Positions 2,854 through 52,421 of a stretch of 64,000 nucleotides of DNA are shown piece after piece; the first letter of the stretch is position 1; each line of letters opens with the position of its first letter. Source of the DNA: an uncultured Bacillota bacterium (lineage in GTDB: Bacteria > Bacillota_I > Bacilli_A > RF39 > UBA660); NCBI GenBank assembly GCA_942493215.1, contig OW818670.1:523298-587297 (forward strand). Direction: 5' to 3'. The notes beneath the pieces are model-generated. The model was not told the origin of the DNA, did no database searches, and saw only the letters and a program-made list of their open reading frames with translations. The position numbers and the translations under genes were made by a program.

Positions 2854-2870
2854 ATTATTCCTTCTTTCTA

Positions 2871-4487: not shown

Positions 4488-4519
4488 TATTCATCACCTA
4501 ATTAATTATATCATTTTTT

Positions 4520-5226: not shown

Positions 5227-5286
5227 CTAATTTTTACAATGTAGATTATTATAGTTATGTTTAATTATCATAAATATAACATTGTA

Positions 5287-5302
5287 TGTTCCACGTGGAA
5301 CA
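5287..5302. promoter_or_regulatory. parS site 2 (TGTTCCACGTGGAACA)
   Basis: Perfect palindrome, one-base variant per half-site of the parS consensus. Embedded in the 18-bp palindrome ATGTTCCACGTGGAACAT. Confidence 0.75.
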
Positions 5303-5452
5303 TTGAAAATTACTATATTATTTTTGCTAATTGAAATATTTAATTTAGTCATTATTATAAATATATTGAAACATTATTTAATTTTATAATTTGTATTGTA
5401 AAATATATATATACTTTTAAATTATTTTTAATTGTTTTGCTTTAACACTTAT

Positions 5453-5468
5453 GTTCCACGTGGAACAT
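5453..5468. promoter_or_regulatory. parS site 3 (TGTTCCACGTGGAACA)
   Basis: Embedded in the 24-bp perfect palindrome CTTATGTTCCACGTGGAACATAAG. Confidence 0.75.
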
Positions 5469-5578
5469 AAGTAACCAGTTTATATATTACTGTTTTAGTA
5501 TCAGTTGGTGCTACTTTCTAGTAAAAAGAGAACTAAAATACTAATTATATAGCAAATATATGTTATAAATTTATTTAA

Positions 5579-5594
5579 TGTTTCACGTGGAACA
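5579..5594. promoter_or_regulatory. parS site 4 (TGTTTCACGTGGAACA)
   Basis: Hybrid of the two half-site variants. Flanked by TAA/TTA extensions. Confidence 0.75.
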
Positions 5595-5732
5595 TTAGAT
5601 AATACTTAAAATAGTAATAAAATAAGACTTTTAAATAAAAGGTATTAAATAATAATATTAAAGATTAAATATTTTTATATTAAGGCATATAGAAAATTAA
5701 ATTCATAGAAATGCTTTTATATTAAATGATTA

Positions 5733-5748
5733 TGTTCCACGTGGAACA
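5733..5748. promoter_or_regulatory. parS site 5 (TGTTCCACGTGGAACA)
   Basis: Embedded in the 26-bp perfect palindrome GATTATGTTCCACGTGGAACATAATC. Confidence 0.75.
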
Positions 5749-5838
5749 TAATCTATAAAATATTTCCTGGGAAATAATTTTTCGTGTTTGATTACAGATT
5801 TGCCGTTTCTGTTATTTCCCAACCAAAAAAAAGGAAGT
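5749..5838. repeat. Direct repeat copy B (about 85 bp) following parS site 5 and abutting the gyrA stop
   Basis: TATTTCCTGGGAAATAATTTTT ... GCCGTTTCTGTTATTTCCCAACCAAAAAAAAGGAAG, aligns with copy A. Confidence 0.7.
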
Positions 5839-8264: not shown

Positions 8265-8279
8265 TATTTAATCCCCCAT

Positions 8280-10211
8280 CTATATATCTAAATTATCAGC
8301 ATAAGTTGCATTTTCTTCAATGAAAGTACGGCGAGGTTCAACTTCCTCACCCATTAATTTATTGAAAACTTGATCTGCTAATATAGCATCTTCAACAGTT
8401 ATCTGCCGTAATATTCTCTTTTCTATATTCATTGTTGTTTCATCTAATTCGTCAGCATCCATTTCTCCCAAGCCTTTCATCCGCATAATCTCATATTTGG
8501 TATTTGGTGAAAGGGTTGATAAATATTCATCACGTTCTTTAGGATTTAAAACATATTTAATTGCTTTGTTATGTTTTATAACAAACAAAGGAGGTTGGGC
8601 TGCATAAACGTGTCCTGCTTCTACTAGCGGACGGAAAAAACGATAAAATAATGTAAGCAATAAAACCCTAATATGCTCACCATCAACATCAGCATCGGTC
8701 ATAATAATGATTTTTCCATACCTCAATTTATTTATATCAAATTCATCACCAATACCTGTACCAAAAGCCGTTATTATAGTTCTAATTTCCTCATTTGATA
8801 AGGCACGATCTAGACGAGCTTTCTCAACATTAAGAATTTTTCCTCTTAAAGGCAAAATAGCTTGGGTTAAGCTGTTACGTCCCTTTATTGCTGATCCACC
8901 GGCTGAATCTCCCTCGACTAAAAATATTTCGCATTCGGAAACATCTTTGCTTTTACAATCACTAAGTTTTCCATAGAAATTAGTAACATCTAAATCACCT
9001 TTGCGACGAGTAAGTTCACGTGCTTTTTTGGCAGCTACTCGTGCTCGTGCTGCAATCATTGTCTTTTCAATAATAATCTTAGCCTGATCAGGATTTTCTA
9101 ATAAAAATCTTTCAAATCCCTCACTAAAAATATTAGAAGCAATTTTTCTTACCTCACTATTACCCAATTTTGTTTTAGTTTGACCTTCAAATTGTGGTTC
9201 AGGAACTTTAGCTGATATTATCATTGTCATTCCTTCACGGACATCTTCACCAGTTAATGGTTCATCATTATCTTTCAATATCTTATTATTTTTACAATAA
9301 GTATTTATAATACGAGTAAGACTGTTTTTTACTCCATCCTCATGAGTGCCACCCTCAGGAGTAACAATGTTATTAACAAATGAATAAATGGAACTAGTGT
9401 AACCATCATTATATTGGAACGCTACTTCCATAGAAACATCTTCTTCGATACCTTCAACATAGACAATTGTTGGGTGAATAGCTATTTTATCATTATTTAA
9501 AAATTCAACATATTCCCTAATTCCGCCTTCATAAACAAAAATATCTTTTTTACCAGTTCTTTCATCACATAAGATTATTCTTAAGCCCTTATTTAAAAAA
9601 GCTAATTGACGAATACGATTATATAAAATTTGATAGTTAAATTCCGTTGTTTCTTTGAATATTTCTGAATCTGGCATAAATGTTACTGTGGTACCTGTTC
9701 TTTCGGCACTACATTCACCTATTACAGTTAATGGTTTAACTGTATGTCCACCACTTTCAAAACGAATGTTATAAATTTTTTCTTCTTTATAAACAGTTAC
9801 TTCAACCCATTTACTTAAAGCATTAACTACCGATGCACCTACACCATGTAATCCACCAGATACTTTATATCCGCCACCACCAAATTTTCCACCAGCATGC
9901 AGAACTGTATATACCGTTTCAACTGTGGATAAACCAGTTTTAGGATGAATTCCAACAGGAATACCACGTCCATCATCCTTTACAGTAACAGAGTTATCTT
10001 TATTAACAATAATCTCAATATCATCACAAAAACCAGCTAAGGCCTCATCAATACTGTTATCAATTATTTCCCACACCAAATGATGTAGCCCAACTTCACT
10101 AGTAGAGCCAATATACATACCTGGTCTTTTACGAACCGCTTCTAGCCCTTCTAATACTTGGATATCCGAAGCATCATAATGTGAAATATTATTAGTTTCA
10201 TTTCTTTCCAT
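8280..10211 (-). CDS. gyrB: DNA gyrase subunit B
   Basis: 643 aa. GHKL ATPase ([16 protein letters not shown]), Toprim [19 protein letters not shown]. Confidence 0.95.
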
Positions 10212-10213
10212 GT

Positions 10214-11329
10214 CTACTCACCTTTTCTTTTTACTTTCTTACCATTTTCAATCATAATTACTTTGGCTTTTTTCACAATTTTTGGATTAATACTCGCTAA
10301 ATCAGTGGCAGTTATAATAGTTTGGCAACTACCATCTATATATTTTAATAGACAGTTTTTCTTTTCCTCATCTAATTCACTAAAAACATCATCTAATAAT
10401 AGAATTGGTTTTGTTCTTTTATATTGAAGAAATATCTCTAATTCCGACAATTTTAAAGCTATAACGGCGCATCTTTGTTGCCCTTGCGAACCATAATTTC
10501 TCAAATTAATACTATCAGTAATAAATTCAAAGTCATCACGATGCGGACCCACAATAGTCATTCCAATTCGACTCTCCTGATCAAAGTTTTTTTTATAACT
10601 ATCCAATAACTCTCTTCTAATAGCATCATCACTAGATAAATCTTTAACTGATGAAAGATAATTAATCTTTAAATTCTTTATACCTGTTATATCAGAAAAG
10701 ATATTACTCACATATTTGTTTATTTTTTCAATATATTTAAGTCGCATTTTGTATATTAAAATAGCTTTATCAATTAAGTGATTTGTTAAAACTTCAAAAT
10801 AATTTTCGTCAAAAGATAAACTTTTAAATCTTTGCTTTAAGCAATCATTACGCATTCGAAGAAGTTTATTGTAATCACTTTGAACTTTTAAAAAACTAGG
10901 AAATAATTGACTTATTTCAATATTAAAGTAATTTCTTCTAAATATTGGTGAACCTTTTACTAATTCTAATTCTTCAGGATAAAAAATAATAATATTTAAT
11001 TTAGAAATATAATCTGAACTCTTCCTAATAACGTTATTATCTATTTCTAAAGTTTTAATGTTATTATTCAATAATACTTTATATTGGGTTTTAGTTTGAT
11101 TTTCTTCAATATGACCACTAACACTATAAAAATGACTGTTTTTTAGGATTAAATCACTATCTTGAATGGCCCGATGCGATTTTGTTAAGCCTAGCAAATA
11201 AATAGATTCCAAAATATTAGTTTTCCCCTGACCATTATTACCTATTATAATATTAATTTTTGACTTAAAGCTAAGAGATAATCTTTTATAATTTCGAAAA
11301 TTAATAAGTTTTAATTGACGTAAAATCAT
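10214..11329 (-). CDS. recF: DNA replication and repair protein RecF
   Basis: 371 aa. Walker [16 protein letters not shown]-like signature, DEL Walker B ([11 protein letters not shown]). Confidence 0.9.
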
Positions 11330-11450
11330 AAAAGCTGCCTCTTTCTATATTTATTTGCCATATAACAAATTAAAAAAATACAAATGTACTCCTATACGTA
11401 CAATAACATTATACCATATATTTTGATGAAAATAAAAAAAATAAGCTGTT

Positions 11451-11909
11451 TTAGCCTATTTTTCTCTGACGCATCATTGATTCCAACCTTGTTGCTCTTA
11501 AAATTTGATTTTCTAATGAAGAATAAGAAATTTTTAGTTCTAAATCCTGTCCGTTGCTTAAAATCAAAATACTACCACTAGAACTGTTTTCACTTTTTCG
11601 ATAATTAGAAATATGTTTCAATGATATCCAATAACAATCATCAATTCTTGGAGAACTAGTTGGAAAAAAAATAATTTCTGTTGATTCTTCTATTATTATT
11701 GGCGTTTTGTAATTGAAACCGATTAAGCTTTTTGTTCCTTCAAATCTCCCAGCATAAGAACTGCCAAAATATCTACAACTATCATCAATAATTTCTGTGG
11801 TAGTTTTATTAATAAAATATATGTTATCATCTTCTATTACTTTCGATACATTACTTTTTATAGGTATTATGGCAATTGTATGCTTATTAATCTCATAGCT
11901 GTCTAACAT
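11451..11909 (-). CDS. comK: ComK-family competence transcription factor (short, 152 aa)
   Basis: Aligns by eye to B. subtilis ComK. DSYEINKHTIAIIP matches ESYEVNGATIAVLP, DSCRYFGSSYAGRFEGT matches RSCRFFGSSYAGRKAGT, TPIIIEESTEIIFFPTSSP and SNGQDLELKISYSSLENQILRATRL are also shared. Confidence 0.7.
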   Translation of the reverse strand: MLDSYEINKHTIAIIPIKSNVSKVIEDDNIYFINKTTTEIIDDSCRYFGSSYAGRFEGTKSLIGFNYKTPIIIEESTEIIFFPTSSPRIDDCYWISLKHISNYRKSENSSSGSILILSNGQDLELKISYSSLENQILRATRLESMMRQRKIG

Positions 11910-12058
11910 TAATTCACCCCCTATCTAATTTTTTTGCAACGAACAAGCAATATTAATAGCACTACTAATTGTCGAATTTTGTTTAATTTTGTCGAAAAAA
12001 GGAAAAAAATAAAAAATGTAACATAAATTGCTACATTTTTATATATATTTACCAAATA

Positions 12059-13180
12059 TTAATATATCCTAATCGGTACAATTAACTGAATTAATTCGTC
12101 TGTTTCCGGATTTTTAATAATAAATGGTTTCAAATTACCATTGAATTGAATTTGTAATTCCATACAATTAAATGCTTTAATAGCATCCATCATATATTTT
12201 GAACTAAACGCTATTGATATTTCCTCGCTATTATCTTTTTCAACAGCTAATTTTTCGGTAACATTTCCAATTTCTGGAATATTTGAAGAAATTATAATTT
12301 GATCCTTTTTACTTTCTAATTTTATAGTATTTTTATCAAATTCATTCGTTAATAATGATGCTCGATCAATTGCTCCATAAAAATCATTAACATTTACTTT
12401 AATATTTAATAAAAATTCTTCAGGTATTAATTTTGAAATATCTGGATAAGTATCATTTATTAATCTTGACATAACAATTAAATTTTCAAATTTAAATATA
12501 ATCTTATTATTAAAAATGTGTAATTCAATATTATTATCATCATTCATGAGCATCCTTACTACTTCTAATAAATTTTTATTAGGAATAATAATATTTACTA
12601 TTTCATCATAGGCTTTAGCAAGAGTAACAGTTTTTTTAGCTAAACGATAAGAATCGGTTGCAACACATTCAAGTTTATCATTGCTTATTTTTAAATTTAT
12701 ACCTGTTAATGAAGGACGTGATTCTTGACTAGAAGTAGCAAATGATGTTTGATTTATTACATTCTTAAAAATCCTTTGAGATAAAATAATAGGATTTTTA
12801 TTTTCCTCTAGTGATATATTAGGAAACTCTGAAACGTTATTACAATTTAAGTTAAAATTAGAAGCATCAGTACTTATATATATCTTTGAAGATTCAACTT
12901 CTTCAATATTTATAATAGTATTAGGTAATTTTCTAATAATCTCATATATATATTTACCAGCTACAACAAATTCACCTAATTCAATTATTTCTTCAATTGA
13001 ACTTTTGGGAATAAACGCTTTAATAGCTAAATCATTATCTGTACTTAATAAATATAAACCATCACTTGTTAAGTCAAATTTTATACAGTTAAGAATTGGT
13101 ATTAAGTTTTTTGATGATACTCCTTTAATTACGTAATTTAATTGTTCCATCAATATTTTTTGATTGATTAATAATTTCAT
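12059..13180 (-). CDS. dnaN: DNA polymerase III beta sliding clamp
   Basis: 373 aa, three-domain beta clamp. Canonical dnaA-dnaN adjacency. Confidence 0.9.
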   Translation of the reverse strand: MKLLINQKILMEQLNYVIKGVSSKNLIPILNCIKFDLTSDGLYLLSTDNDLAIKAFIPKSSIEEIIELGEFVVAGKYIYEIIRKLPNTIINIEEVESSKIYISTDASNFNLNCNNVSEFPNISLEENKNPIILSQRIFKNVINQTSFATSSQESRPSLTGINLKISNDKLECVATDSYRLAKKTVTLAKAYDEIVNIIIPNKNLLEVVRMLMNDDNNIELHIFNNKIIFKFENLIVMSRLINDTYPDISKLIPEEFLLNIKVNVNDFYGAIDRASLLTNEFDKNTIKLESKKDQIIISSNIPEIGNVTEKLAVEKDNSEEISIAFSSKYMMDAIKAFNCMELQIQFNGNLKPFIIKNPETDELIQLIVPIRIY

Positions 13181-13297
13181 ATTTTTGTACCTTCTTTCTT
13201 TTTTATATATATTATTATTATTATAGATGTGGAAAAAGTTTAAAACTATCTTTTTTGTTATAATATAAGCAATTATTTAGGTTTTTGTTTTCCACAT
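13181..13297. promoter_or_regulatory. dnaA-dnaN intergenic part of oriC: DnaA boxes plus an AT-rich unwinding element
   Basis: TGTGGAAAA (13228-13236), TTTTCCACA (13288-13296), TGTTCCACA (13308-13316, inside the dnaA 3' end). The (TA/TTA)n tract at 13201-13226 is a candidate DNA unwinding element (DUE). Confidence 0.7.
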
Positions 13298-14659
13298 TTA
13301 CTTTATTTGTTCCACAATCTTATTTATTTCTTGTTCTAAATTACTATCTTTAACAATAGCTTTTTTAATTTTATCAACTGAATGCATAACGGTAGTGTGA
13401 TCTTTTCCACCAAATTCAAGTCCAATTTTAGGTAATGATTCTTTTAAAAAGATTCTACAAATGTACATCCCTATCTGTCTTGGAACAGAAATCGTCATCA
13501 TTCTCTTCTTACTTTTTAAATCTTCTACACTAATATTATAGTTATTAGCAATAATTTGTTGGACTTGATTAATTTTATTTTTTGAAATAAAGGTTTTACC
13601 AAAGTAGTCTTTTAAGGCTTCGACCGCTAATTCTAAAGTAATATCAGAACCATTCATAATGGTTGCATAAGCAAAAATTCTTGTAATAGCGCCCTCTAAT
13701 TTTCTTATATCACTTGTACAGTTACTAGCAATATAATCTTTTACATCATTTGGAAAATATGATGCTATCCCCTGTCCTTCAATTTTTTTGTCAATTATAT
13801 TTAACCTTAAAGGTAAATCTGGTGGTAATAAATCAACGGTAATTCCCCAATAAAATCTTGTTTTTAAACGATCTTCAAATTTCTTTAAATCATCTGGTGA
13901 TCTATCAGAACAAATTATGATCTGCTTATTTTTTTGATGTAATTCATTAAAAGTGTTGAAAAATTCTTGTTGCGTTTTACTAGCAATTTCAAGATATTGA
14001 ATATCATCAATCATTAAAACATCTAAATCTCGATATTTTCTTTTAAAATTTTCGATGGCTGAAAAATTATTCTCATCTTTATTTTTCCTATATAAATCTA
14101 AAAAGTCTTCGACAAATTTTTCACAAGTAATATAAAGTACCCTTTTATTTGTATTTTTTGATATATAATTACCAATTGCATGTATTAAATGCGTTTTTCC
14201 TAAGCCACTGTTGCCATATATAAATAAAGGATTATAAACATAACCTGGTTTTTCAGCTACCGCTAGTGCTGTAGCTTGAGCAAATTTGTTACTATTTCCA
14301 ACAATAAATGTATCAAAAGTATATTGTGGATTTAAATTAGTTTCAAAATTAATATTATTAGGTACGCCCATTTCATCAGTATTTACTTCAATATTCTTTT
14401 CTTGTTCTTCCTCAGTAATATACTCTATTTGAAAGTTTGATCCTGTAATATCAGTAAATATTTCTTCCACTATATCATTATAACTTTCTTTAATATGTTT
14501 TTTATGAATATGCATAGGAACTAGAACAATTGCTTTGTTATCTTTTATTTCAATTAGGGTTGTATCTTTGAACCAAGTATCGAAAGACATAGGTGCTAGT
14601 TGATCTTTTATTCTAGATAAACATGATTGCCAAATGTTTTCCACATCCATAAAACCCAC
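13298..14659 (-). CDS. dnaA: Chromosomal replication initiator DnaA
   Basis: 453 aa. AAA+ Walker A GNSGLGKTHL, and a C-terminal DnaA-box-binding helix-turn-helix. Confidence 0.95.
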   Translation of the reverse strand: MGFMDVENIWQSCLSRIKDQLAPMSFDTWFKDTTLIEIKDNKAIVLVPMHIHKKHIKESYNDIVEEIFTDITGSNFQIEYITEEEQEKNIEVNTDEMGVPNNINFETNLNPQYTFDTFIVGNSNKFAQATALAVAEKPGYVYNPLFIYGNSGLGKTHLIHAIGNYISKNTNKRVLYITCEKFVEDFLDLYRKNKDENNFSAIENFKRKYRDLDVLMIDDIQYLEIASKTQQEFFNTFNELHQKNKQIIICSDRSPDDLKKFEDRLKTRFYWGITVDLLPPDLPLRLNIIDKKIEGQGIASYFPNDVKDYIASNCTSDIRKLEGAITRIFAYATIMNGSDITLELAVEALKDYFGKTFISKNKINQVQQIIANNYNISVEDLKSKKRMMTISVPRQIGMYICRIFLKESLPKIGLEFGGKDHTTVMHSVDKIKKAIVKDSNLEQEINKIVEQIK

Positions 14660-14739
14660 CCACTCTCGCTAATTACCTATATCTTACAATAAAAATAAGA
14701 AAAAAGAAAGCAAAAAAAAACTTAAAAAAACAAATCACA

Positions 14740-14906
14740 TTTTTTTCCACCATAAAACACCTTTAAAAACAATAAATAATGTAGTTTTCCACACCTAAAA
14801 ATTATTTTTTCCACATATTAAAAATTCCACATTAATAACTTTTCCACATAGCTGTTGAAAAGTCCAAAATATAAAGTAAAATTATGAATACATTTATGTG
14901 GAAAAA
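14740..14906. promoter_or_regulatory. Upstream oriC DnaA-box cluster
   Basis: TTTTTCCACC at 14741, TTTTCCACA at 14785, 14807 and 14840, AATTCCACA at 14823, and inverted TGTGGAAAA at 14897. That is six boxes in about 170 bp upstream of dnaA. Confidence 0.75.
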
Positions 14907-14934
14907 TATGTTGAATGATATTTTAAGAATCTAT

Positions 14935-14963
14935 TTGACAATCATTACTTATTATAATATAAT
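14935..14963 (+). promoter_or_regulatory. sigma-A promoter of the rpmH-rnpA operon
   Basis: TTGACA (14935-14940), 17-bp spacer, TATAAT (14958-14963). RBS AGGAGGTG lies ahead of rpmH. Confidence 0.6.
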
Positions 14964-15005
14964 GTTCTAGACAGCGAATCAGTAGCACAGGAGGTGTGAG
15001 ATAAT

Positions 15006-15128
15006 ATGAAGAGAACTTATCAACCAAATAAGAGAAAAAAGAGTAAAGTAAACGGATTTTTAGCAAGAGTAAAGACTGGTATTGTAGCAAGAAGACGTAG
15101 AAAAGGCCGTAAAGTTTTAGCTCATTAA
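15006..15128 (+). CDS. rpmH: 50S ribosomal protein L34
   Basis: Manual translation gives [40 protein letters not shown]. Not in the ORF track because it is under 60 aa. Strong SD. Confidence 0.85.
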
Positions 15129-15134
15129 TAAATA

Positions 15135-15162
15135 CCACTGGATCTTCAGTGGTTTTATTTTT
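15135..15162 (+). terminator. Rho-independent terminator/attenuator after rpmH
   Basis: CCACTG-gatctt-CAGTGG followed by TTTTATTTTT. Confidence 0.6.
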
Positions 15163-15180
15163 AATTGATAGAGGTGGAAT

Positions 15181-15522
15181 ATGAAAAAAATTAATACTAT
15201 TAAGGAAAATAAAGAATATGATCGTATCATAAAAACTTATCGTCCTTATCGTACCCTAATAGCCAATATTTTTTTTGAAGAAGGAAACTATGACTATTAT
15301 CGTTTTGGTATTTCTGTTAGTAAAAAGATTGGACCGGCTGTTGTTAGAAATAAACTAAAACGGCAGATTAAGACGATTATTGATAAAAACATCTATCAAA
15401 AAAAGTTTAATTGTATTATAATATTGAAAAAAGAGATATTAGATAAAAATTATGATGAAATGGAAAAAACACTTAATAAAGCCTTTGAATCATTGAAAAT
15501 AAAAAAAGGAGCAAATGAATGA
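15181..15522 (+). CDS. rnpA: RNase P protein component
   Basis: 113 aa, basic, with an RNR-like motif (KLKRQIK). Conserved rpmH-rnpA-yidC order. Confidence 0.85.
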   Translation: MKKINTIKENKEYDRIIKTYRPYRTLIANIFFEEGNYDYYRFGISVSKKIGPAVVRNKLKRQIKTIIDKNIYQKKFNCIIILKKEILDKNYDEMEKTLNKAFESLKIKKGANE

Positions 15523-16442
15523 AAAAATTAAAAACAATAATAATTATCCTAATGCTGACATTAACCCTAACTGGTTGTACTCAACAATTAAAAGATAAGA
15601 ATGGTAAACTTGTTCAAAATCCTGAAACAGGTCAAACTTTAGCTTCTAACATTATTTGCCAACCGGAAGATAAAAAAACACTAGAGATATATGCTAAAAA
15701 CAAAATTGATATTAGTAAATTACCTAAATGTTCAGAATTTAAAGTTACATCTGGTGGTTATGAAGGTTTATGGACCAGTATTTTTGTTAAACCATTATCA
15801 TGGTTAATTATTGAAACCGCAAAATTTGTTAGTAATTATGGTATAGCTATTATTATTATAACCTTATTAATTAGAGCTATATTAATGCCTGTAACAAATA
15901 AAACCGTTTCTCAAACCGAGAAAATGAATAAAATTAAACCGGAATTAGAAAAATTAGAAAAAAAATATAGTAATAAAAATGATAAAGATGCAGCAATGCA
16001 AAAGAATCAAGAGATGATGCTAATATATAAGAAGAATGATATTAACCCAATGTCAGGTTGTATCTTTGCTTTTTTACAAATTCCTTTATTCTTTGCATTC
16101 TATGAAGCATTAAGCCGTATACCGGCCATCTATGAATCAAACTTTTTATTTTTCCAATTAGGAACTAGTCCGGCCGTAGCTGTTCAAAATGGTCAATGGT
16201 ATTATATTATATCTATTATTTTAATTTTTTTAGTTACTTTTTATTCCTTTAAATTAAATCCAACTGCATCAGTAAGTGTTGATCAAGAAAAGCAAATGAA
16301 GATATTTACTTATGTGTTTGTCGGTATAATTGTTGTAGCATCAATAACTATGCCAACTTGTATTGCTATATATTGGATAATAAATAATAGTTTCACAGTA
16401 ATTCAGAATCTATTAGTTAAAAGGAGGAAAAGAAATGTTTAA
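15519..16442 (+). CDS. yidC: Membrane protein insertase YidC/SpoIIIJ (lipoprotein)
   Basis: 307 aa. Lipobox LTLTGC, 60-kDa inner-membrane insertase core with multiple TMs. Confidence 0.9.
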   Translation: MKKLKTIIIILMLTLTLTGCTQQLKDKNGKLVQNPETGQTLASNIICQPEDKKTLEIYAKNKIDISKLPKCSEFKVTSGGYEGLWTSIFVKPLSWLIIETAKFVSNYGIAIIIITLLIRAILMPVTNKTVSQTEKMNKIKPELEKLEKKYSNKNDKDAAMQKNQEMMLIYKKNDINPMSGCIFAFLQIPLFFAFYEALSRIPAIYESNFLFFQLGTSPAVAVQNGQWYYIISIILIFLVTFYSFKLNPTASVSVDQEKQMKIFTYVFVGIIVVASITMPTCIAIYWIINNSFTVIQNLLVKRRKRNV

Positions 16443-28491: not shown

Positions 28492-28667
28492 ATAGTAAGG
28501 CATTATTTTAATAAAAATATTTAGAAAAGACACCTAGATATACCTTAAAATGTTAGAGGTAAATATTGGGTGTCTTTTAAATTGATAAAACAACATAAAA
28601 ATTTAGATTGAAAAAAAATAAAATTTGTGGTAATATTGCATTAGAAATAGGAGTGTGTGTGTTTTGT

Positions 28668-31600
28668 ATGCAGGAAAAATACTTTAAAACTAGTCACTTA
28701 TTAATAATAACAATTGTCATCATGGTTATTACAGGAGTAGTTTGGTTTTTCTTATCCAATAGTCAAAAGGTACAAGAAATTGAAGTATCAAATGCTAATA
28801 TAGCGTTAAGTCCTGGGGAAATATTTGTTTTAAGGACAAATACCCAGCCTATTAGTAGTACGGATCTTGAATACGAATCATCTAATCCTAATATTGCAAG
28901 TATAAATGATTCAGGAATAATAACTGCTAATACGGCAGGAACAGTACAAATTACTGTTACATCTAGGCAAACAGGTGTATCAACCACTTGTGATTTAACC
29001 GTCTCTAATGATGTTTTAAAAGCTACGAGTGTGTCGTTTTCTAATAGTACATTATCTGTAGACAAAAACAGTAAACATCTATTAAAAATAGTAGTTAGTC
29101 CAACCGGAGCTAAGGTGCCTACTTTAACTTTTAGAAGTAGTGATTACAATATTGTAAGTGTTGATAGTTATGGATATATAACTGCCAATAATTATGGTCA
29201 AGCTACTATATATGCCGAAGGTGAAGTAAATGGTGTTCAAATTGTTACAACAACACAAGTAACAGTCACTAATAATGTAGATAGTCCTAATAATATAGTG
29301 CAAACTTTATCGTTAAGTGAAACATCTTTAACAATAAAAACAGGTGATAATCATCAATTATTTGCTAATAATAATCAACAAGTCAATTGGACTAGTAGTG
29401 ACAATAGTGTTGCTACGGTCGATAGTGCCGGAATTATTACAGCAATAAAACAAGGAAATATTAAAATAACCGCAACTACCACTGATAACAAATTAAGTGC
29501 TAGTTGTAATTTAAATGTTATAAATAATACTGTAAGTGTTACCGGTATAACATTAAATAGAACTGATGCTCAACTATATGTTGGTAATAGAATTACCTTA
29601 CAAGCTTCTGTAGCACCAAATAATGCTACAGAAAAAGGTATTAAATGGGAAAGTAGTGACAATAGTATTGCTACCGTTGATAGCTATGGCGTTGTTACGG
29701 GAATAAGCGAAGGAAATGTCGTTATTACTGTTATTACAGCCAGTGGTAATAAAACAGCTGTAAGTAATATAACTGTTAAACAAGCTCCACAAGCAGTAGC
29801 TAGTGTAAATGTAAACGGAATTTCTTTAGATAAAACTAATATTGAACTTGGTATAAACGGCACTTTAACTTTAGTAGCAACTATCAATCCTGCTAATGCT
29901 ACTAATAAAGATGTGACTTGGTCGAGTGGTAATACAGGTATTGCTACCGTTAATAATAACGGTTTAGTAACAGGCATAAAAGAAGGAACTACAACCATTA
30001 CTGTTACAACCAGAGATGGTGGTAAGACAGCAACTTGTACAGTTATAATTAAAAAATCACAAAGTACGGTTATAAGTCCTAGTAGTGTAACCTTAGATCA
30101 AAACAATGTAATAATTAGAGTTAACGAAATTTTAACTTTAAAACCAACCATAACACCAAATAATGCTAGTAATTTAGGTGTAACTTGGAAAAGTAGTAAT
30201 GGTGATGTTGCTTCAGTTGATAGTAGTGGTACTATAAAGGGAAATAAAGTTGGAACTGCAACTATTACGGTTACAACTAAAGATGGTGGCAAAAGCACTA
30301 CATGTAAGGTAACAGTTAAGAGTAGACTAGATACATCTATTGATGTAAGTCGTATAACTCTTGATAAAACTAATATTGAGTTAAATGTAAAAGGAAAAAT
30401 TAAATTAACTGCAACTATTAAGCCTGATAATGCTACTAATAAAGGTGTAAAATGGAGTAGTAGTGATAGTAAGGTAGCCAGTGTGGATAGTAATGGTAAT
30501 GTTACAGGTAAAAAAGCTGGTAAAGCAACTATTACTGTTATAACTAAAGATGGTGGTAAAAAGGCCACATGTGTAGTGGTTGTTAAAAAACAACAAAATC
30601 CTACTATAAATGTGAGTAGTGTAAGTTTAAATAAAACTAATATGCAAATTAACATTGGTCAAACTGGTACATTAGTTGCAACGACAATACCAAATAATGC
30701 AACCAATCAATCAGTAACATGGAAAAGTAGTAATGTTAAAGTCGCAACCGTTAATAAATATGGTTTTGTTACAGCCATAAAAGCCGGAACAACTGTTATT
30801 ACAGTTAAGACCAAAGATGGTGGCAAAACAGCGATTTGTACGGTAGTGGTTAAGGATCCAGCTAGTGAAATTGTAAAAGTAAAGAGCGTATCACTAGATA
30901 AAACAGAAGTTGGACTTTTACCAAATCAAACAATAACTTTAGTAGCAACTATTAATCCAAGTACAGCTACTAATAAAAATATAACATGGACAAGTAGTGA
31001 TAAAGATATTGCCTCAGTAGATAGTAGTGGTACAGTAAAAGGAAATAGAGTTGGAACAGCGACTATTACCGTTACAACCAAAGATGGTAAAAAGACGGCC
31101 AAATGTAAGATAACCGTTAAAAAATATGAAAATGGTAATATTAGTGTTAGTAGTATATCGTTAAATAAAGAAAAGATAACCATTGATACAGGAAAAACCT
31201 ATACTTTAAAACCAACTATTAAACCAGATAATGCTACAATTAAAGATGTAATATGGAGTAGTAATAACACAAGTGTTGCAACGGTTAATGAAAAAGGTGT
31301 TGTTACGGGTATAAAAGCCGGTAACGCAACTATTACCGCTACAACTAAAGATAGTGGTAAAAAAGATACTTGCAAAGTTGAGGTAAAAACAGCAATTGTA
31401 GCTGTTAGTGATGTAAGTTTAAATAAAACTAATATGCAAATAAACATTGGTGAGACAGCTACATTAGTAGCAGAAGTAATACCAACCAGTGCTACCAATC
31501 AATCGGTAACATGGACAAGTGATAATAGTAAAGTTGCCTCAGTTAATAAGTATGGTGTTGTTAAAGGTGTAAAAGCTGGAACAGCAACTATTACTGTTAA

Positions 31601-33740
31601 GACTAAAGATGGTGGTAAAACCGAAATTTGTACTGTTACCGTAAAAGACCCCAGCAATACCGTGGTAAAAGTAAAGAGCGTATCATTAGATAAGTCAAAT
31701 GTTGGACTTTTACCAAATCAAACAATAACTTTAGTAGCAACTATTAATCCAAGCACAGCTACTAATAAAAATATAACATGGACAAGTAGTGATAAAGATA
31801 TTGCCTCAGTAGATAGTAGTGGTACAGTAAAAGGAAATAGAGTTGGAACAGCGACTATTACCGTTACAACCAAAGATGGTAAAAAAACGGCTAAATGTAA
31901 GATAACCGTTAAAAAATATGAAAATGGTAATATTAGTGTTAGTAGTATATCATTAGATAAAGAAAAGATAACCATTGATACAGGAAAAACCTATACTTTA
32001 AAACCAACTATTAAACCAGATAATGCTACAATTAAAGATGTAATATGGAGTAGTAATAGCACAAGTGTTGCAACAGTTAATGAAAAAGGTGTTGTTACAG
32101 CCTTAAAAGCCGGTAAAGCAACTATTACCGCTACAACTAAAGATGGTGGTAAAAAGGCTACATGTACTGTTGAGGTAAAAACAGCAATTGTAGCTGTCAG
32201 TGGAGTAGTCTTAAATAAAACTAATATGGAGATTAATCTTGGTGAGACAGCTACATTAGTTGCTAACGTAGTACCAAGTACTGCCACCAACCAATCAGTA
32301 ACATGGAAGAGTGGTAATATTAAAGTTGCATCAGTTAACAAAAACGGTATTATTAAAGGCTTAAAAATAGGAACAGCAACTATTACTGTTACAACCAAAG
32401 ATGGCAGTAAAACAGCCACATGTACTGTTACCGTAAAAGATCCAACAGTATTTGTTAATAGCGTAAGCTTAAATAAAAAAGAATTAGAGATAAATATTGG
32501 TGAAGCTACAACTTTAGTAGCAACTATTAATCCAAGTACTGCCACTAATAAAGCAGTTGTATGGGGAAGCAGTGATTCTAAAGTAGCTAAAGTTGATAAA
32601 AATGGTTCTGTCACAGCCTTAAAGGTTGGATCAGCAGTTATCACAGTTAAAACTAGAGATGGTAGTAAAACAGCACAATGCAAAGTAACAGTAAAAGATC
32701 CAAATATATATGTAGATGCGGTGACTTTAGATAAAACAGACATTGGACTGAATGCAGGCAGCTCATTAAATTTGGCTGCGACTGTAAGTCCAAGTAATGC
32801 TACCAATAGAGCAGTTATATGGGGAAGCAGTGATGATAAAGTAGCCAAAGTTGATGGCAATGGTTTAGTAAAAGGCTTAAAGACAGGCACAGCAACCATT
32901 ACTGTTAAGACTAAAGATGGTGGCAAAATAGCCAAATGCCGTGTCGAAGTTAAAAAATATACAAATGGTGTTGTTAGTGTTAGAGAAATATCTTTAGACA
33001 AAGAAAAAATGATTATTTATTCTGGTGCATCTTATAAACTGATTCCAACCATAAAACCAGATAATGCAGCCGTTAAAGATATAACATGGACAAGTAATAA
33101 TCCAAGTGTTGCTACAGTTGATAAGAACGGTGTTGTTAGAGGTATAAAAGTTGGAACTGCGACTATTACAGCCAAAACTACTAGTGGTGGTAAAACCGTT
33201 ACTTGTAAGGTAGAAGTAAGAAAAGCTGTATTAGGAGTAGTATTAAGCAAAACAAGTATGACAGTTTATACTAGTCAAACTGCAACTTTAGTAGCAGTTG
33301 TTAATCCAAGTGATGCTACGGATAGAACTATAACATGGTCAAGTAGTAATCCAACCGTTGCTTCGGTTGACAAAAATGGTATGGTAAGAGGTATAAGTGT
33401 TGGATCAGCAGTTATCACCGTTAAAACTAATGATGGTGGTAAAACTGCAACCTGTAATGTTACAGTTGCATTATTGCCCAACACACCTATAAAAGTAACT
33501 GGTGTATCCTTTAGTCAAAAGAGTTATAGTATTGGCAAAAATAAAACGATAACATTAAGTCCAATAATAACACCAAGCAATGCTACTAATAAGGCTGTTA
33601 CTTGGAAAAGCAGTAATAGTAAAGTTGCTTCAGTAGATAGCAGTGGTCTTGTTAAAGGCAACAGCGCTGGAACTATTACCATAACGGTTACAACCCAAGA
33701 TGGTAAGAAAACAGCAACCTGTAAGATAGTAGTTAAATAA
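28668..33740 (+). CDS. Giant cell-surface protein with about 20 tandem Big_2 (bacterial Ig-like group 2) domains and an N-terminal signal anchor
   Basis: The ORF runs 28608..33740. Start moved to ATG 28668 because it has GGAGTG upstream, whereas the TTG at 28608 lies upstream of the TGTGGTAATAT extended -10. Each repeated domain of about 80-90 aa carries ...ATN..V.W.SS...VA.VD..G.V.G.K.GTATITV.T.DG.K.A.C.V.VK. No LPXTG motif or C-terminal anchor. Confidence 0.8.
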   Translation: MQEKYFKTSHLLIITIVIMVITGVVWFFLSNSQKVQEIEVSNANIALSPGEIFVLRTNTQPISSTDLEYESSNPNIASINDSGIITANTAGTVQITVTSRQTGVSTTCDLTVSNDVLKATSVSFSNSTLSVDKNSKHLLKIVVSPTGAKVPTLTFRSSDYNIVSVDSYGYITANNYGQATIYAEGEVNGVQIVTTTQVTVTNNVDSPNNIVQTLSLSETSLTIKTGDNHQLFANNNQQVNWTSSDNSVATVDSAGIITAIKQGNIKITATTTDNKLSASCNLNVINNTVSVTGITLNRTDAQLYVGNRITLQASVAPNNATEKGIKWESSDNSIATVDSYGVVTGISEGNVVITVITASGNKTAVSNITVKQAPQAVASVNVNGISLDKTNIELGINGTLTLVATINPANATNKDVTWSSGNTGIATVNNNGLVTGIKEGTTTITVTTRDGGKTATCTVIIKKSQSTVISPSSVTLDQNNVIIRVNEILTLKPTITPNNASNLGVTWKSSNGDVASVDSSGTIKGNKVGTATITVTTKDGGKSTTCKVTVKSRLDTSIDVSRITLDKTNIELNVKGKIKLTATIKPDNATNKGVKWSSSDSKVASVDSNGNVTGKKAGKATITVITKDGGKKATCVVVVKKQQNPTINVSSVSLNKTNMQINIGQTGTLVATTIPNNATNQSVTWKSSNVKVATVNKYGFVTAIKAGTTVITVKTKDGGKTAICTVVVKDPASEIVKVKSVSLDKTEVGLLPNQTITLVATINPSTATNKNITWTSSDKDIASVDSSGTVKGNRVGTATITVTTKDGKKTAKCKITVKKYENGNISVSSISLNKEKITIDTGKTYTLKPTIKPDNATIKDVIWSSNNTSVATVNEKGVVTGIKAGNATITATTKDSGKKDTCKVEVKTAIVAVSDVSLNKTNMQINIGETATLVAEVIPTSATNQSVTWTSDNSKVASVNKYGVVKGVKAGTATITVKTKDGGKTEICTVTVKDPSNTVVKVKSVSLDKSNVGLLPNQTITLVATINPSTATNKNITWTSSDKDIASVDSSGTVKGNRVGTATITVTTKDGKKTAKCKITVKKYENGNISVSSISLDKEKITIDTGKTYTLKPTIKPDNATIKDVIWSSNSTSVATVNEKGVVTALKAGKATITATTKDGGKKATCTVEVKTAIVAVSGVVLNKTNMEINLGETATLVANVVPSTATNQSVTWKSGNIKVASVNKNGIIKGLKIGTATITVTTKDGSKTATCTVTVKDPTVFVNSVSLNKKELEINIGEATTLVATINPSTATNKAVVWGSSDSKVAKVDKNGSVTALKVGSAVITVKTRDGSKTAQCKVTVKDPNIYVDAVTLDKTDIGLNAGSSLNLAATVSPSNATNRAVIWGSSDDKVAKVDGNGLVKGLKTGTATITVKTKDGGKIAKCRVEVKKYTNGVVSVREISLDKEKMIIYSGASYKLIPTIKPDNAAVKDITWTSNNPSVATVDKNGVVRGIKVGTATITAKTTSGGKTVTCKVEVRKAVLGVVLSKTSMTVYTSQTATLVAVVNPSDATDRTITWSSSNPTVASVDKNGMVRGISVGSAVITVKTNDGGKTATCNVTVALLPNTPIKVTGVSFSQKSYSIGKNKTITLSPIITPSNATNKAVTWKSSNSKVASVDSSGLVKGNSAGTITITVTTQDGKKTATCKIVVK
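30586..32460. repeat. Intragenic tandem array of 792-bp units (three Big_2 domains per unit) with near-identical cores
   Basis: 30873-31312 and 31665-32104 are about 97% identical. The track shows identical 85-aa antisense ORFs 30926..31183 and 31718..31975, exactly 792 bp apart. Flanking C-type domains at 30586, 31380 and 32170 are more diverged. Confidence 0.85.
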
Positions 33741-33765
33741 AAATATTTATTAAATAAAGCCTTGG

Positions 33766-33800
33766 AAGAAGTAGCTATATTCTACTTCTTTTTTATTATT
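33766..33800 (+). terminator. Terminator after the giant Big_2 gene
   Basis: GAAGAAGTAG-ctatat-CTACTTCTT followed by TTTTTATT. Confidence 0.65.
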
Positions 33801-33954
33801 AAAATAACTTTGACAGTTATTACATAAATAATGATAAAAAACATTATACAAAAAAGTTATTTTGTGCTAATATATTGTAATCAATGAAAAATAATAATGA
33901 AATTGAAAAAAATCTTAAAATGTGCTAATATCTTTAGAAGGGGAAGTGTGTTTT

Positions 33955-35865
33955 ATGGAAAGTAATGATAGAAATCCAATTTTTACCAAAAGAAATATTA
34001 TAATTGGTGGTGCTGTTTTACTATTATTAATAATAGCAATATTTTTTCTAGTGGCCTGCAATCGGAAGACAAAGGTTGAAAAAATTGAAGTTTCCCAAAC
34101 TAATCTTAGTATTGCTCCTGGAGAAACTTTCCTTTTAAAATCTAATGTTTATCCATCTAATGCTAGTAATAAGGATTTACAATATACATCAACTGATCCT
34201 AGTGTCGCTACGGTCGATGATAAAGGTATGATTACTGCTTTAAAGGCGGGGAAAACACAGATTGTTATAAAGTCACCAGATACTGATTTTGTAGCCGCAT
34301 GTGATATTGTAATATCTAATAATCCTGATACAGCCACAGCTATAAATTTTGATAATTCGGATATAACAATTAATAGGGGAATGAAGCAATTATTAACAAC
34401 AAGAATTACCCCAGATACAGCTAAAGTACCAACCTTAATGTTTGCTAGTAGTAATTCTAATATTGTAAGCGTTGATAAAGATGGTTACATAGTTGGTAAT
34501 GCCATAGGAACGGCTATCATAACAGTAACAGGAAATAGTGGCACAAGTAATAACCTAACAACAACTACTAAAGTGACGGTTGTAGAATCTAGTCAAAATA
34601 ATAATCCTGATAATAATGTTGGCGTAACAGGGATAACTTTAAATAAAACTAGTCTTTCTTTAGACGAAGGCAAAGAGTATCAGCTAGTAGCAGATCTGAC
34701 AGCGACAGGTGGTATACCAACAGTGACTTGGAATAGTAGTAATCCTAATGCTGCAATAGTTGATAAAACAGGACGTGTAACAGCTGTAAAAGCCGGAACT
34801 GCCACAATAACTGCAACCGCCGGTGGTAAAACAGTCACAACAACGGTAACGGTAGTTAGCCCATCTACTAGCAATAATACTACTGATAATACCAATCCAA
34901 ATAATACTAATAGTGATAACAGTGGTTCTAATAACAACAATACTAATACTAATACTGATAATTCCAATACCAACACTAACACTAACACAAATACCAATCC
35001 TAGTCCAAGTGATACTAGTACACCTAGCATTAGTTTCAAAGTAACGGGAACACAAGGTAATAGTGGATGGTATAAATCAGTTGTTACTTTAGGTGTAACA
35101 ATAGGTAATTCAACTAATGTTACTGCTAAATATTGCGTTGTTAGTGCGGGATCTACTTGTACACCATCTAAAACAATTCCTACTAATGGAATTACCATTG
35201 GTAATGGTAAATGGGTATTATATTTTAATGCTACAAATAATGTTAACAAAAAAATAACTACAACAAGTAAACAAATTAATGTTGATTTTAGTGCTCCAAT
35301 ATGCAAATATGATGTAAGCGATGAATGGGAAGATAACAAAAAAGTTACTTTTTCAGCTGTCGATTATATAAGTGATGTTAGGGGAATAAGATATAATGGT
35401 TATATGTTTCTTGTTACTTCTAAATATATCATTGAACCAGATGGAACATATTCTATGACTTGTGAGGATATAGCGGGGAATACTGCAACCGCAACCGTTA
35501 GAATTATTTCCCAAACAGAATATGCTTATCGTACTTGTAAATCTTGTACTATTACATCGTATAATGCCTGGATAAAGAAAAGTCAAAGTTGTTATACAAT
35601 TAATAAGACACCAAGTAAATATAATGCTGAAAAGGACGGAATGCTTGAATATTATGAGTGTACCCTACAATCAGGTACAGGCAATGGCTGTACCAAAGGA
35701 CAATATTATTGCCGTTATTATACAAGAACAGTAGTAAGAAATTGTTTAACAGGTTGTGTAACTTGGAGTCCATGGAGTGATTACTCAACAATTATTCAAA
35801 ATGCCCTTAGAACAAAATATCAATATAAAGAGATAAAAAAACGTACAACATATAATGTTGGATAA
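33955..35865 (+). CDS. Paralogous Big_2 surface protein with N/T-rich low-complexity linker and novel Cys-rich C-terminal domain
   Basis: ORF from 33922. Start taken at ATG 33955 (MESNDRNPIF), preceded by AGAAGGGGAAG. N-terminal anchor and first Big_2 domains are paralogous to the 28668 gene. Linker NTNTNTDNSNTNTNTNTNTNPSPS. C-terminal region of about 280 aa has 11 Cys. Confidence 0.75.
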   Translation: MESNDRNPIFTKRNIIIGGAVLLLLIIAIFFLVACNRKTKVEKIEVSQTNLSIAPGETFLLKSNVYPSNASNKDLQYTSTDPSVATVDDKGMITALKAGKTQIVIKSPDTDFVAACDIVISNNPDTATAINFDNSDITINRGMKQLLTTRITPDTAKVPTLMFASSNSNIVSVDKDGYIVGNAIGTAIITVTGNSGTSNNLTTTTKVTVVESSQNNNPDNNVGVTGITLNKTSLSLDEGKEYQLVADLTATGGIPTVTWNSSNPNAAIVDKTGRVTAVKAGTATITATAGGKTVTTTVTVVSPSTSNNTTDNTNPNNTNSDNSGSNNNNTNTNTDNSNTNTNTNTNTNPSPSDTSTPSISFKVTGTQGNSGWYKSVVTLGVTIGNSTNVTAKYCVVSAGSTCTPSKTIPTNGITIGNGKWVLYFNATNNVNKKITTTSKQINVDFSAPICKYDVSDEWEDNKKVTFSAVDYISDVRGIRYNGYMFLVTSKYIIEPDGTYSMTCEDIAGNTATATVRIISQTEYAYRTCKSCTITSYNAWIKKSQSCYTINKTPSKYNAEKDGMLEYYECTLQSGTGNGCTKGQYYCRYYTRTVVRNCLTGCVTWSPWSDYSTIIQNALRTKYQYKEIKKRTTYNVG

Positions 35866-35933
35866 TATTTATCTCTTTTTTCTTGAAAAAATAACAATCA
35901 TAATATATAATTAAGAAAGATAGGAGTGGTAAT

Positions 35934-36599
35934 GTGCGAAATTCTGGTTTTACTCTAGTAGAGGTATTAACGGTTACTATTATTTTAGGAGCCATTGCGC
36001 TTATTACTATCCCAACCATTGATCGTTTGATGAAAAATTCTAATCAAAAAACCTATGAAGCTCAAGTTGATAACATAAAAGATGCTGCTAAACAGTGGTC
36101 AACCAATAACCCTGAACACTTACCAAATGATATTGGGAGTACAACTGTTGTTGAGCTTAGAACTCTTAAACAAACGGGATATATTAATATGAAAATATTA
36201 AATCCCTTAACCAAGGCTTATTTTTATGATAATACTTATGTTGTTATAACTAAACGATATAATAATTATACCTATGATGTTACTGTCACTGATACACCAG
36301 ATGAAAATGATCAGGTCTATAGTGCTTCATATGAACTTTTACCAGTAATATCTTTAAACGGTGTCTTACCAACCACAACTATAGAGAGAAGTAGTAGTTA
36401 TACTATTGCTCAAAGTGATATAACAGCTACAGCTACAGGCACAAAAACAATTGATCATATCGATATTGATATAAGTAAAAATGGATTAAAAGTTACTTCT
36501 ATTGATACCTCATCTGAAGCAACATATATTGTTACTTATAAAGCTTATGATAGCGACAATTTAAGTGCCATAATACAAAGAATAATAATAGTAAGTTAA
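35934..36599 (+). CDS. Type IV pilin-like / pseudopilin-like protein (prepilin N-terminal cleavage/methylation motif)
   Basis: GTG start 7 nt after AGGAG. N-terminus (M)RNSG|FTLVEVLTVTIILGAIALI is the class-III signal: G-1, F+1, E+5, hydrophobic helix. 221 aa. Confidence 0.65.
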   Translation: MRNSGFTLVEVLTVTIILGAIALITIPTIDRLMKNSNQKTYEAQVDNIKDAAKQWSTNNPEHLPNDIGSTTVVELRTLKQTGYINMKILNPLTKAYFYDNTYVVITKRYNNYTYDVTVTDTPDENDQVYSASYELLPVISLNGVLPTTTIERSSSYTIAQSDITATATGTKTIDHIDIDISKNGLKVTSIDTSSEATYIVTYKAYDSDNLSAIIQRIIIVS

Positions 36600-36602
36600 A
36601 AT

Positions 36603-36630
36603 AAAAGAGGTTACCTCTTTTATTTATTTT
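36603..36630 (+). terminator. Terminator after the pilin-like gene
   Basis: AAAAGAGG-tta-CCTCTTTT followed by ATTTATTTT. Confidence 0.7.
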
Positions 36631-36709
36631 GACCTTAAAAAAAGATAGCTTTATATTGTTAATTATGGTAAAATATTAATTGGATATAAATTAGAAATTT
36701 GGTGATGAT

Positions 36710-51155: not shown

Positions 51156-52421
51156 ATGAAACAATTACTTAAAGTTCTACTGTCTCTATTTGCAGTTTTC
51201 TATATTGTGCAAATATTGTTTCTTTTTTTTGGACCAGGATATGAGACTAATTATCGTCTAAATGATAATGGAAGTGTTTTTACTATTGATGAAAAATACC
51301 AAAAAAATAGCTTATATCAACTATCTAATTACTATATAACAATCAGTTTAAATAATCAGAGTTTTGACTACCAATTAGTTAAGACTAAAAATATGGGAAC
51401 AAGAATTATTAATTCCATTAAATATTATAGTGATAGTAGTTATACTTGTATTTGGCCAATATTTAAGAATAGTGATGTTAAATATGACATAACTTGTTTA
51501 AATAATGGGAATTTATTTTACTATCATGATATAAAGAATAAGGATAGTAATTTAGATCTTTTTGTTAATAATTTAAAAGAATATGATATAAATAATTTTG
51601 TTAATGATGAAGGCCAATATAATCAAACCGATAATATCTTTTTATACCAAAATAATACTATCAAAGATTATAATTTATCATTATTAAGTGATCGAGTAGT
51701 CTATTGCGCTAGTTATAATTATAACTTTTTTAATAAAATAAATGTTTTTAATGATAACACTTTAAGATTAGACACTAATTCTATATATACATATATTAAT
51801 AATTATCTTGTTATAGCGGATGGTACTACATCCAACAACTTTACAAAAATAATTTTAATTAATCAAGATGCCAGTAGTCACCAGACTATTGATACCTCAG
51901 ATATTTCATCTAATTCTTATATTGAGGGCGTAGTTGGTAATAGTGTCTACTTAATAGATCGAAACACTAAAAAACAATATGAAATAAATGCTGATAATAA
52001 AACCTCTTTAATAATAGGAACAGAAAAATCAGGTATTAAATATTACAACAATGGTCAGTGGGAAAATAGGAGTTTTGAAGATGCCTTAAAAAACAATTTG
52101 ATTTTTACACAAATAGTAAATGATGTTACGAACGATTTTACTGGGTATGATAGAGTTATAAAATATGGTGATAACAACATTGGTTATTACTATTACTTTA
52201 AAATTAATAATGGTAAATATGATGTTTATTCTTCATCAATTAAGAATCCCCATCAATTAACTTATCTTTTTACTTCTAGTATGGACAAGATAAAATATGA
52301 TGGTGACTATATATATTTTATTGATAACGGCTTATTAAAATATTATCATCACAGTAAAGGACTACGAACTTTAGTAAATATGCATAGTAGTATTATTGAT
52401 TATAATATTTATTATAATTAA
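51156..52421 (+). CDS. Hypothetical membrane-anchored/secreted Asn-Tyr-rich protein
   Basis: 421 aa. N-terminal hydrophobic anchor, about 25% N+Y, no recognisable domain. Confidence 0.4.
   Translation: MKQLLKVLLSLFAVFYIVQILFLFFGPGYETNYRLNDNGSVFTIDEKYQKNSLYQLSNYYITISLNNQSFDYQLVKTKNMGTRIINSIKYYSDSSYTCIWPIFKNSDVKYDITCLNNGNLFYYHDIKNKDSNLDLFVNNLKEYDINNFVNDEGQYNQTDNIFLYQNNTIKDYNLSLLSDRVVYCASYNYNFFNKINVFNDNTLRLDTNSIYTYINNYLVIADGTTSNNFTKIILINQDASSHQTIDTSDISSNSYIEGVVGNSVYLIDRNTKKQYEINADNKTSLIIGTEKSGIKYYNNGQWENRSFEDALKNNLIFTQIVNDVTNDFTGYDRVIKYGDNNIGYYYYFKINNGKYDVYSSSIKNPHQLTYLFTSSMDKIKYDGDYIYFIDNGLLKYYHHSKGLRTLVNMHSSIIDYNIYYN

Follow-up and report, generated by a model that had tools for sequence, protein, structure and literature searches.

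The closest described counterparts of the protein reported here, which we call Big2L, are the periscope proteins, including SasG/Aap, Rib/alpha C, Sgo_0707, CdrA and BapA (PMC8201768; review PMC9704523). Like Big2L, these proteins consist of tandem folded domains, mostly Ig-like (E-set), with high DNA identity between units, and recombination has been proposed to change them in frame by steps of whole domains. The periscope survey screened for repeats longer than 50 aa with at least 80% amino-acid identity and then demanded an observed variation of repeat number between strains; variation was greatest among the repeats of highest identity, and Big_2 occurs in its Dataset S1 solely in the role of an accessory domain, within lyase clusters, and is not the unit that repeats (PMC8201768). 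The two units of Big2L are 86.7% identical over 264 aa, which lies within that sequence screen, and the two-domain G5-E unit of SasG is the closest architectural precedent for its multi-domain unit. Whereas the periscope proteins have many units near 100% identity, Big2L has about two, which share 89% of their sequence overall and 95% within the core; its topology is reversed, since the presumed membrane anchor sits at the N-terminus and the C-terminus is free; and it is without a non-repeat functional head, LPXTG or an outer-membrane anchor. Judged from sequence, Big2L might function as a variable stalk of the periscope type, and we treat it as a periscope-like candidate instead of filing it as a member of the class.

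When compared with the LPXTG repeat proteins (Rib/alpha C, SasG/Aap, Esp), Big2L lacks both the LPXTG motif and the hydrophobic tail, and its repeats are Big_2 domains. Another comparison is given by Mycoplasma, a reduced-genome Bacilli lineage related to that of the source organism, in which the N-terminally anchored surface lipoproteins Vlp and Vsa change their length via in-frame tandem repeats; these repeats are short, near-identical stretches of tens of residues without structure, and expression is often phase-variable. None of these traits is seen in Big2L: neither short unstructured repeats, nor a lipoprotein nature, nor phase-variable expression. The Lig proteins of Leptospira are spirochaete lipoproteins with Ig-like stalks and defined adhesive tips. 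The inverse autotransporters (intimin/invasin family), for which a review cites 2–47 BIg repeats, likewise share Ig-like stalk domains with Big2L, and in both families the repeat number differs widely between homologues; being Gram-negative outer-membrane proteins with adhesive tips, they resemble it in Ig-like domain class.

The window, by which we mean the whole 64,000-nucleotide stretch of DNA analysed, spans a replication origin region, with dnaA at 13298–14659 on the minus strand and a GC-skew switch near 14–15 kb, and also holds yidC-jag-mnmE-mnmG-rsmG, tilS, ftsH, parA, parB, ychF, ssb and secA. The order tilS-ftsH-parA-parB-abgT was found in about 40 of 69 related loci, where the gap between ftsH and parA is usually 0.1–1 kb and at most 3.9 kb; here it is 8.2 kb and contains three genes, which encode Big2L, a 647-aa paralogue and a 221-aa pilin-like protein carrying an N_methyl motif (Pfam). 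The paralogue shares with Big2L a transmembrane segment and an N-terminal module of three Big_2 domains (36% identity over 272 aa, E=4e-46). A homologue of the pilin-like gene lies between ftsH and parA in only two relatives (L063 and L064), and the sole Big_2 match was a weak one in L063 (34% over 272 aa), to a protein encoded elsewhere, upstream of tilS. A tilS-anchored scan with 10-kb flanks gave no Big2L orthologue in the closest genomes, whose TilS proteins are at most 72% identical. Because the 8.2-kb block is absent from nearly all relatives, we regard Big2L as an accessory gene that is specific to its lineage and occupies a variable site.

The terminator-like hairpin that follows the stop codon makes Big2L look like its own transcription unit. 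Promoter-like matches upstream were no commoner than in shuffled sequences. We also searched the upstream region for an invertible promoter and found just short, AT-rich inverted repeats, on which ground an inverton or phase-variable promoter was ruled out. As to simple-sequence tracts, TRF gave just the domain-scale repeats within Big2L and an upstream AT-rich repeat with two copies of 26 bp. A step of 792 bp preserves the frame and so cannot turn expression on or off. Two antisense ORFs, at 31991–33001 (336 aa) and 30098–30655 (185 aa), are without a Pfam match, and we take them to result from the repetitive nature of the sense frame.

The ORF at 28608–33740 on the plus strand is the longest in its part of the window. 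Starting at ATG 28668 it encodes 1,690 aa, the length given in the original prediction, and starting at GTG 28659, 5 nt after a GGAG sequence (28650–28653), it encodes 1,693 aa. The sole database match, P0001, is 100% identical and 1,693 aa long, which equals the product of the GTG start, and it is a singleton in a cluster look-up. The Pfam profile Big_2 (PF02368) matches with E=1.7e-280 and 906 bits (gathering cutoff 22.8), reporting 18 matched stretches; when the count is anchored on the conserved W-x-S-S-N motif, the gene has 19 Big_2 domains. The linkers between domains, visible in the sequence, have about 5–9 residues, and no other type of domain was found anywhere in the protein either by Pfam or in the translation. 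The hydrophobic segment near the N-terminus, about 22 residues long and without a lipobox Cys as read from the translation, is presumed to serve either as a membrane anchor or as a signal anchor that is not cleaved. At the other end, the protein terminates in TATCKIVVK with the stop codon directly after domain 19, and no LPXTG motif, hydrophobic tail or other C-terminal anchor was found in the translation. Among sequences of solved structure, those nearest to Big2L belong to Ig-like proteins of phages and surfaces and are informative as to fold class only. By analogy with other Ig-like arrays, the protein would form a rod-like stalk. A location at the cell surface is presumed.

Within this array, the profile of identity at an offset of 792 bp pairs the region from about 30606 to about 31652 with that at about 31398–32444, and domains 8–14 thus read as a three-domain unit repeated 2.33 times, in the order A-B-C, A-B-C, A (Table 1). 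The repeat is in frame since 792 is three times 264, its boundaries are those of whole domains, and the reading frame is intact through all copies, so that the tandem 792-bp unit of three Big_2 domains that had been predicted was found as such.

Table 1. Coordinates of Big2L, its repeat units and neighbouring features in the window
Feature	Position	Strand	Basis or remark
Big_2 array gene (Big2L)	28659..33740	+	ORF list, translation, Pfam, GGAG site, P0001 match
N-terminal hydrophobic segment SHLLIITIVIMVITGVVWFFLS	28692..28757	+	Read from translation; follows K-rich start
Super-repeat unit 1: A1 (D08), B1 (D09), C1 (D10); 792 bp = 264 codons	30606..31397	+	Offset-792 profile, domain matrix, blastn
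High-identity tract, copy 1 (B1+C1); innermost part 30909–31266	30873..31405	+	24 mismatches in 533 nt
Super-repeat unit 2: A2 (D11), B2 (D12), C2 (D13)	31398..32189	+	Offset-792 profile, domain matrix, blastn
High-identity tract, copy 2 (B2+C2); innermost part 31701–32058	31665..32197	+	blastn 95.5% over 533 nt
Partial unit 3: A3 (D14)	32190..32444	+	About 80–81% nt identity to A2, 74% to A1
Terminator-like hairpin with T-run	33764..33792	+	Just past stop codon; consensus scan, pattern match

The identity between the two units is distributed very unevenly. As a whole they are 89.2% identical at the nucleotide level (blastn, 788 nt), and the high identity is concentrated in a B-C tract of 533 bp, which is graded from 98.6% in the inner 358 bp (5 mismatches) to about 86–90% at the edges. 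Domain by domain, B1/B2 are 97% and C1/C2 93% identical in nucleotides, with 97% and 90%, respectively, at the protein level over 78 aa, while A1/A2 reach 76.6–79% and A2/A3 80–81%. The original prediction described near-identical 792-bp repeats, which holds for the 533 bp of B-C, two-thirds of the unit, at 95.5% and is overstated for the unit as a whole, because its A part is merely 76.6–80.1% identical. Similarly, the 440-bp cores (30873–31312 and 31665–32104), predicted to be about 97% identical, differ at 16 sites and measure 96.4%, close to that value, and the tract of high identity really extends to 533 bp. The other Big_2 domains are much more diverged, as had been proposed: the remaining pairs among D04–D19 have a median identity of 64%, the next-best ones being at 73–81%. 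A weaker period-3 signal, at about 68%, reaches D05–D07 and D15–D17. Adjacent domains are 42–55% identical in amino acids, whereas pairs three positions apart reach 97%, and no further copy of the 792-bp repeat above 72% identity was found elsewhere in the window.

The longest exact runs between the unit copies are 131, 102, 59 and 53 bp. When the positions of mismatches were permuted (n=5000), the longest identical run did not exceed 85 bp, as against the observed 131, and every 358-nt window retained at least 25 mismatches, as against the observed 5; chance is therefore excluded as the origin of the high-identity tract. The mismatch density also differs between the core and its flanks (Fisher p=9e-19) and, within the core, between the inner 358 bp and the 3' 139 bp (Fisher p=3e-5).

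Exact runs as long as 131 bp can tangle short-read assembly graphs, and we considered the view that assembly created the repeat, whether by joining or duplicating a segment wrongly or by collapsing an array that really has more copies; the original prediction had cautioned against such a collapse. The copies can, however, be told apart, since 24 of the 533 core sites differ and the flanking A domains show 20–25% divergence, which makes a collapse of these two copies unlikely, although additional identical copies could still be hidden; in addition, the frame is open throughout, and the source contig of 1,494,278 bp suggests an assembly of high contiguity. We thus judge an artefact to be very improbable.

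In order to characterise the unevenness at silent sites, dS and dN/dS were estimated for each segment by the Nei-Gojobori method. The dS value is 0.087 for B1/B2 and 0.154 for C1/C2, compared with 0.75 for A1/A2, 0.64 for A2/A3 and 0.75 for A1/A3; the B-C tract overall has a dS of 0.12 with a dN/dS of 0.24, and dN/dS lies at 0.17–0.31 across every segment, showing that all segments are under purifying selection. Since the contrast sits at synonymous sites, it comes neither from a stronger constraint on the B-C protein sequence nor from diversifying selection on A. This point bears on the view that B and C have been under a much stronger functional constraint than A ever since one shared duplication. 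The coincidence of the high-identity tract with domain boundaries would suit such a history, but protein constraint predicts something other than a dS of 0.12 against 0.64–0.75 at a similar dN/dS, and we rejected this explanation as hardly conceivable.

The simplest route to a tandem repeat is a single recent duplication by unequal crossover followed by point mutation alone, without gene conversion, and the period of exactly one three-domain unit would be natural for it. This history predicts, however, that divergence is even over the 792 bp and that the A domain at the junction is nearly identical to A1 and/or A3. Neither was found: silent-site divergence varies about sixfold between segments (p=9e-19 for the underlying mismatch contrast), and A2 is about equidistant from A1 and A3, its sites being interspersed as 26 A1-like, 33 A3-like and 19 private ones, an arrangement which indicates that A2 is not the chimeric junction of a single recent unequal crossover. 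The segment-wise dS and the non-chimeric A2 led us to rule out a single recent duplication, to which we would grant only an extremely small probability.

The mosaic of divergence shows that, in this lineage, the two units have exchanged sequence by homologous recombination. We consider it likely, from the pattern of substitutions, that Big2L contains an old super-repeat whose B-C part was partly homogenised by intragenic gene conversion, and not the result of one recent duplication; gene conversion as the mechanism of homogenisation is our interpretation of the same pattern. An A-B-C super-repeat would have arisen long ago in the stalk formed by the 19 Big_2 domains, and the A domains have since reached a dS of about 0.7; the hydrophobic segment at the N-terminus presumably holds the protein at the membrane. 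One or more later non-reciprocal exchanges would then have overwritten about 0.53 kb, exactly B and C, in one unit from the other, and the graded identity suggests that conversion tracts were nested or repeated. Since the conversion, the B-C copies would have gained a dS of about 0.05–0.15 under purifying selection. A multi-step history, in which the A copies were replaced after the 792-bp duplication, is a conceivable alternative to this order of events. The edges of the presumed conversion tract (30873 and about 31405) match domain boundaries, which is unexpected from random conversion endpoints, and we may guess that selection acted against chimeric domains.

The exact runs listed above are longer than the minimum stretch of homology that RecA-dependent exchange is usually said to need. 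Unequal exchange of the RecA type could thus delete or duplicate 792 bp in frame, i.e. 264 aa or three domains at a time, and the products would stay in frame, with B/C domains that are either whole or hybrid, making repeat-number variation of Big2L plausible. The original prediction went further in regarding the repeats as near-perfect substrates for RecA-dependent expansion or contraction: they are indeed long and in frame, with runs of up to 131 bp and traces of past exchange, but at a dS of 0.05–0.15 the copies fall short of near-perfect. The accompanying proposal of an adhesin with antigenic variation found no support, the protein being without a ligand-binding tip domain or a wall anchor and having just the N-terminal hydrophobic segment.

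The idea of length variation in the original prediction corresponds to an active periscope-type stalk, in which units of 264 aa are often added and removed within populations by RecA acting on 0.53 kb of homology, so that the protein projects more or less far from the cell. Its repeats are within the sequence screen of the survey (86.7% over 264 aa), the in-frame unit consists of whole Ig-like domains, exact runs extend to 131 bp, and recombination between the units has evidently occurred in the past. Against this stand the small number of copies, merely 2.33, and the 4.5% divergence of the core with a dS of 0.05–0.15, because frequent unequal exchange would hold the copies near-identical and the survey saw most variation at the highest identity (PMC8201768). 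The values of dS further mean that the copies have coexisted for a long time without loss or renewed homogenisation, which argues against a fast-switching locus. There is also no distal functional domain or wall anchor, and a second allele is absent from all collections searched: no further allele of Big2L was found among 185,579 species genomes, 5.8 billion proteins and 241 million records from metagenomes. A protein search with the full length returned Big2L itself followed by generic giant Big_2 proteins at 35–43% identity, a search with the N-terminal 296-aa module gave at most 35%, and a metagenome scan with the same module gave at most 29%. On balance, we think an actively varying stalk unlikely. 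What the sequence documents is homogenisation, attributed to gene conversion, and not a change of copy number, and loss or gain of 792 bp is probably an occasional evolutionary event instead of a dedicated system of high-frequency variation.

A related question is whether the three-domain super-repeat was selected or is incidental. Inter-domain misfolding, which penalises identical neighbours, has been discussed for periscope proteins, and the three-domain unit, whose neighbours are just 42–55% identical in amino acids, would sidestep this problem. The spacing may therefore be a design feature, which avoids misfolding while gene conversion keeps a 0.5-kb recombination substrate in place, so that Big2L would be a variable stalk anchored at the N-terminus and without a tip; as a reading of the sequence this is, in our estimation, rather improbable. 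We know of no variable-length stalk of such an N-anchored, tip-less kind described in a gut Bacilli lineage that, like this one, is uncultured and has a reduced genome.

The giant Big_2 proteins of gut Clostridia (Ruminococcus/Acutalibacteraceae MAGs; P0002–P0120) allow us to see how common such repeats are. These proteins, 2,000–2,950 aa long, have long runs of Big_2 domains and are 35–43% identical to Big2L over the whole length; their repeat offset is usually two domains (162–170 aa), in contrast to three in Big2L, and they are not its orthologues. In an ungapped offset scan, internal 80-aa windows with at least 80% identity were found in 10 of the 119 other giant proteins (80–98%), mostly at two-domain offsets, indicating that homogenised multi-domain repeats are recurrent and ordinary in such arrays. 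The repeat of Big2L is thus real and well-defined, yet ordinary for genes of this type.

The practical value of this analysis is that a 1.9-kb stretch is flagged for long-read verification, and no major question is opened or settled by it. If length variation were true, the periscope idea would extend to Big_2 arrays, would reach an uncultured, Mycoplasma-related gut lineage and would gain an N-terminally anchored topology. For now, Big2L serves as a small and clear-cut case of concerted evolution within a domain array.

Of the 69 related MAG loci compared around tilS, about 40 have parA-parB after ftsH, usually across a gap of 0.1–1 kb; in the window an 8.2-kb block lies in this interval. A few relatives (loci L020, L063 and L064) carry other pilin-like or Big_2 genes at the ftsH-parA site instead; at this same position, L063 and L064 have homologues of the 221-aa pilin-like protein. 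Genes diverge around dnaA and the GC skew switches sign at about 14–15 kb; the large Big_2 gene is located about 14–19 kb from the origin, co-oriented with the positive-skew arm. The ftsH-parA site, near the origin, looks like a variable surface-protein site.

Features in and around the block between ftsH and parA
Feature	Position	Strand	Content
Replication origin region	1-16000		dnaA, diverging genes, GC skew sign change
dnaA	13298-14659	-	
Third Big_2 protein, 431 aa	21986-23281	+	two Big_2 domains
8.2-kb block	28492-36709		19-domain Big_2 gene, 647-aa Big_2 paralogue and 221-aa pilin-like gene; ftsH-parA interval
Antisense ORF, 185 aa	30098-30655	-	inside Big_2 gene
Antisense ORF, 336 aa	31991-33001	-	inside Big_2 gene
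647-aa Big_2 paralogue	33922-35865	+	N-terminal module common with Big_2 gene
221-aa pilin-like protein	35934-36599	+	prepilin N-terminal methylation motif
421-aa ORF	51156-52421	+	

The 647-aa paralogue and the large Big_2 gene have in common a TM segment and an N-terminal module of three Big_2 domains (36% over 272 aa). In the paralogue, a lipobox-like LVAC is followed downstream by a low-complexity linker rich in N and T, which an imperfect array of AATACT hexamers (34939-35002) encodes; the C-terminal part, about 254 aa long and rich in Cys, has no Pfam match. The N_methyl motif of the 221-aa protein scores just under the Pfam cutoff, and this protein also shows a weak match to an Ig-like surface domain. 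The domains of the 431-aa protein are similar to domains 1–2 of the large gene (37% over 134 aa), and the 421-aa ORF gave no Pfam match at E<=1e-5.

Within 28525-28623, 3' of the ftsH stop, there is a perfect 10-bp hairpin stem (AAAAGACACC / GGTGTCTTTT) with a 34-nt loop, followed by Ts. A 26-bp AT-rich sequence also occurs there twice in tandem (84%), overlapping what looks like the promoter of the Big_2 gene. Neither of the two antisense ORFs has a Pfam match, and both probably arise as a side effect of the sense frame being repetitive and A-rich.

The 119 other giant Big_2 proteins found by protein search, which belong to gut Clostridia, have lengths that fall into discrete classes (about 2275, 2453–2463, 2616–2620, 2781–2786, 2827–2847 and 2945–2952 aa). 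Most steps between classes are about 160–190 aa, i.e., about two domains, and several of these proteins have internal repeats 91–98% identical at offsets of 162–170 aa. Such sequence patterns hint that this Clostridia family may vary in length in two-domain steps.
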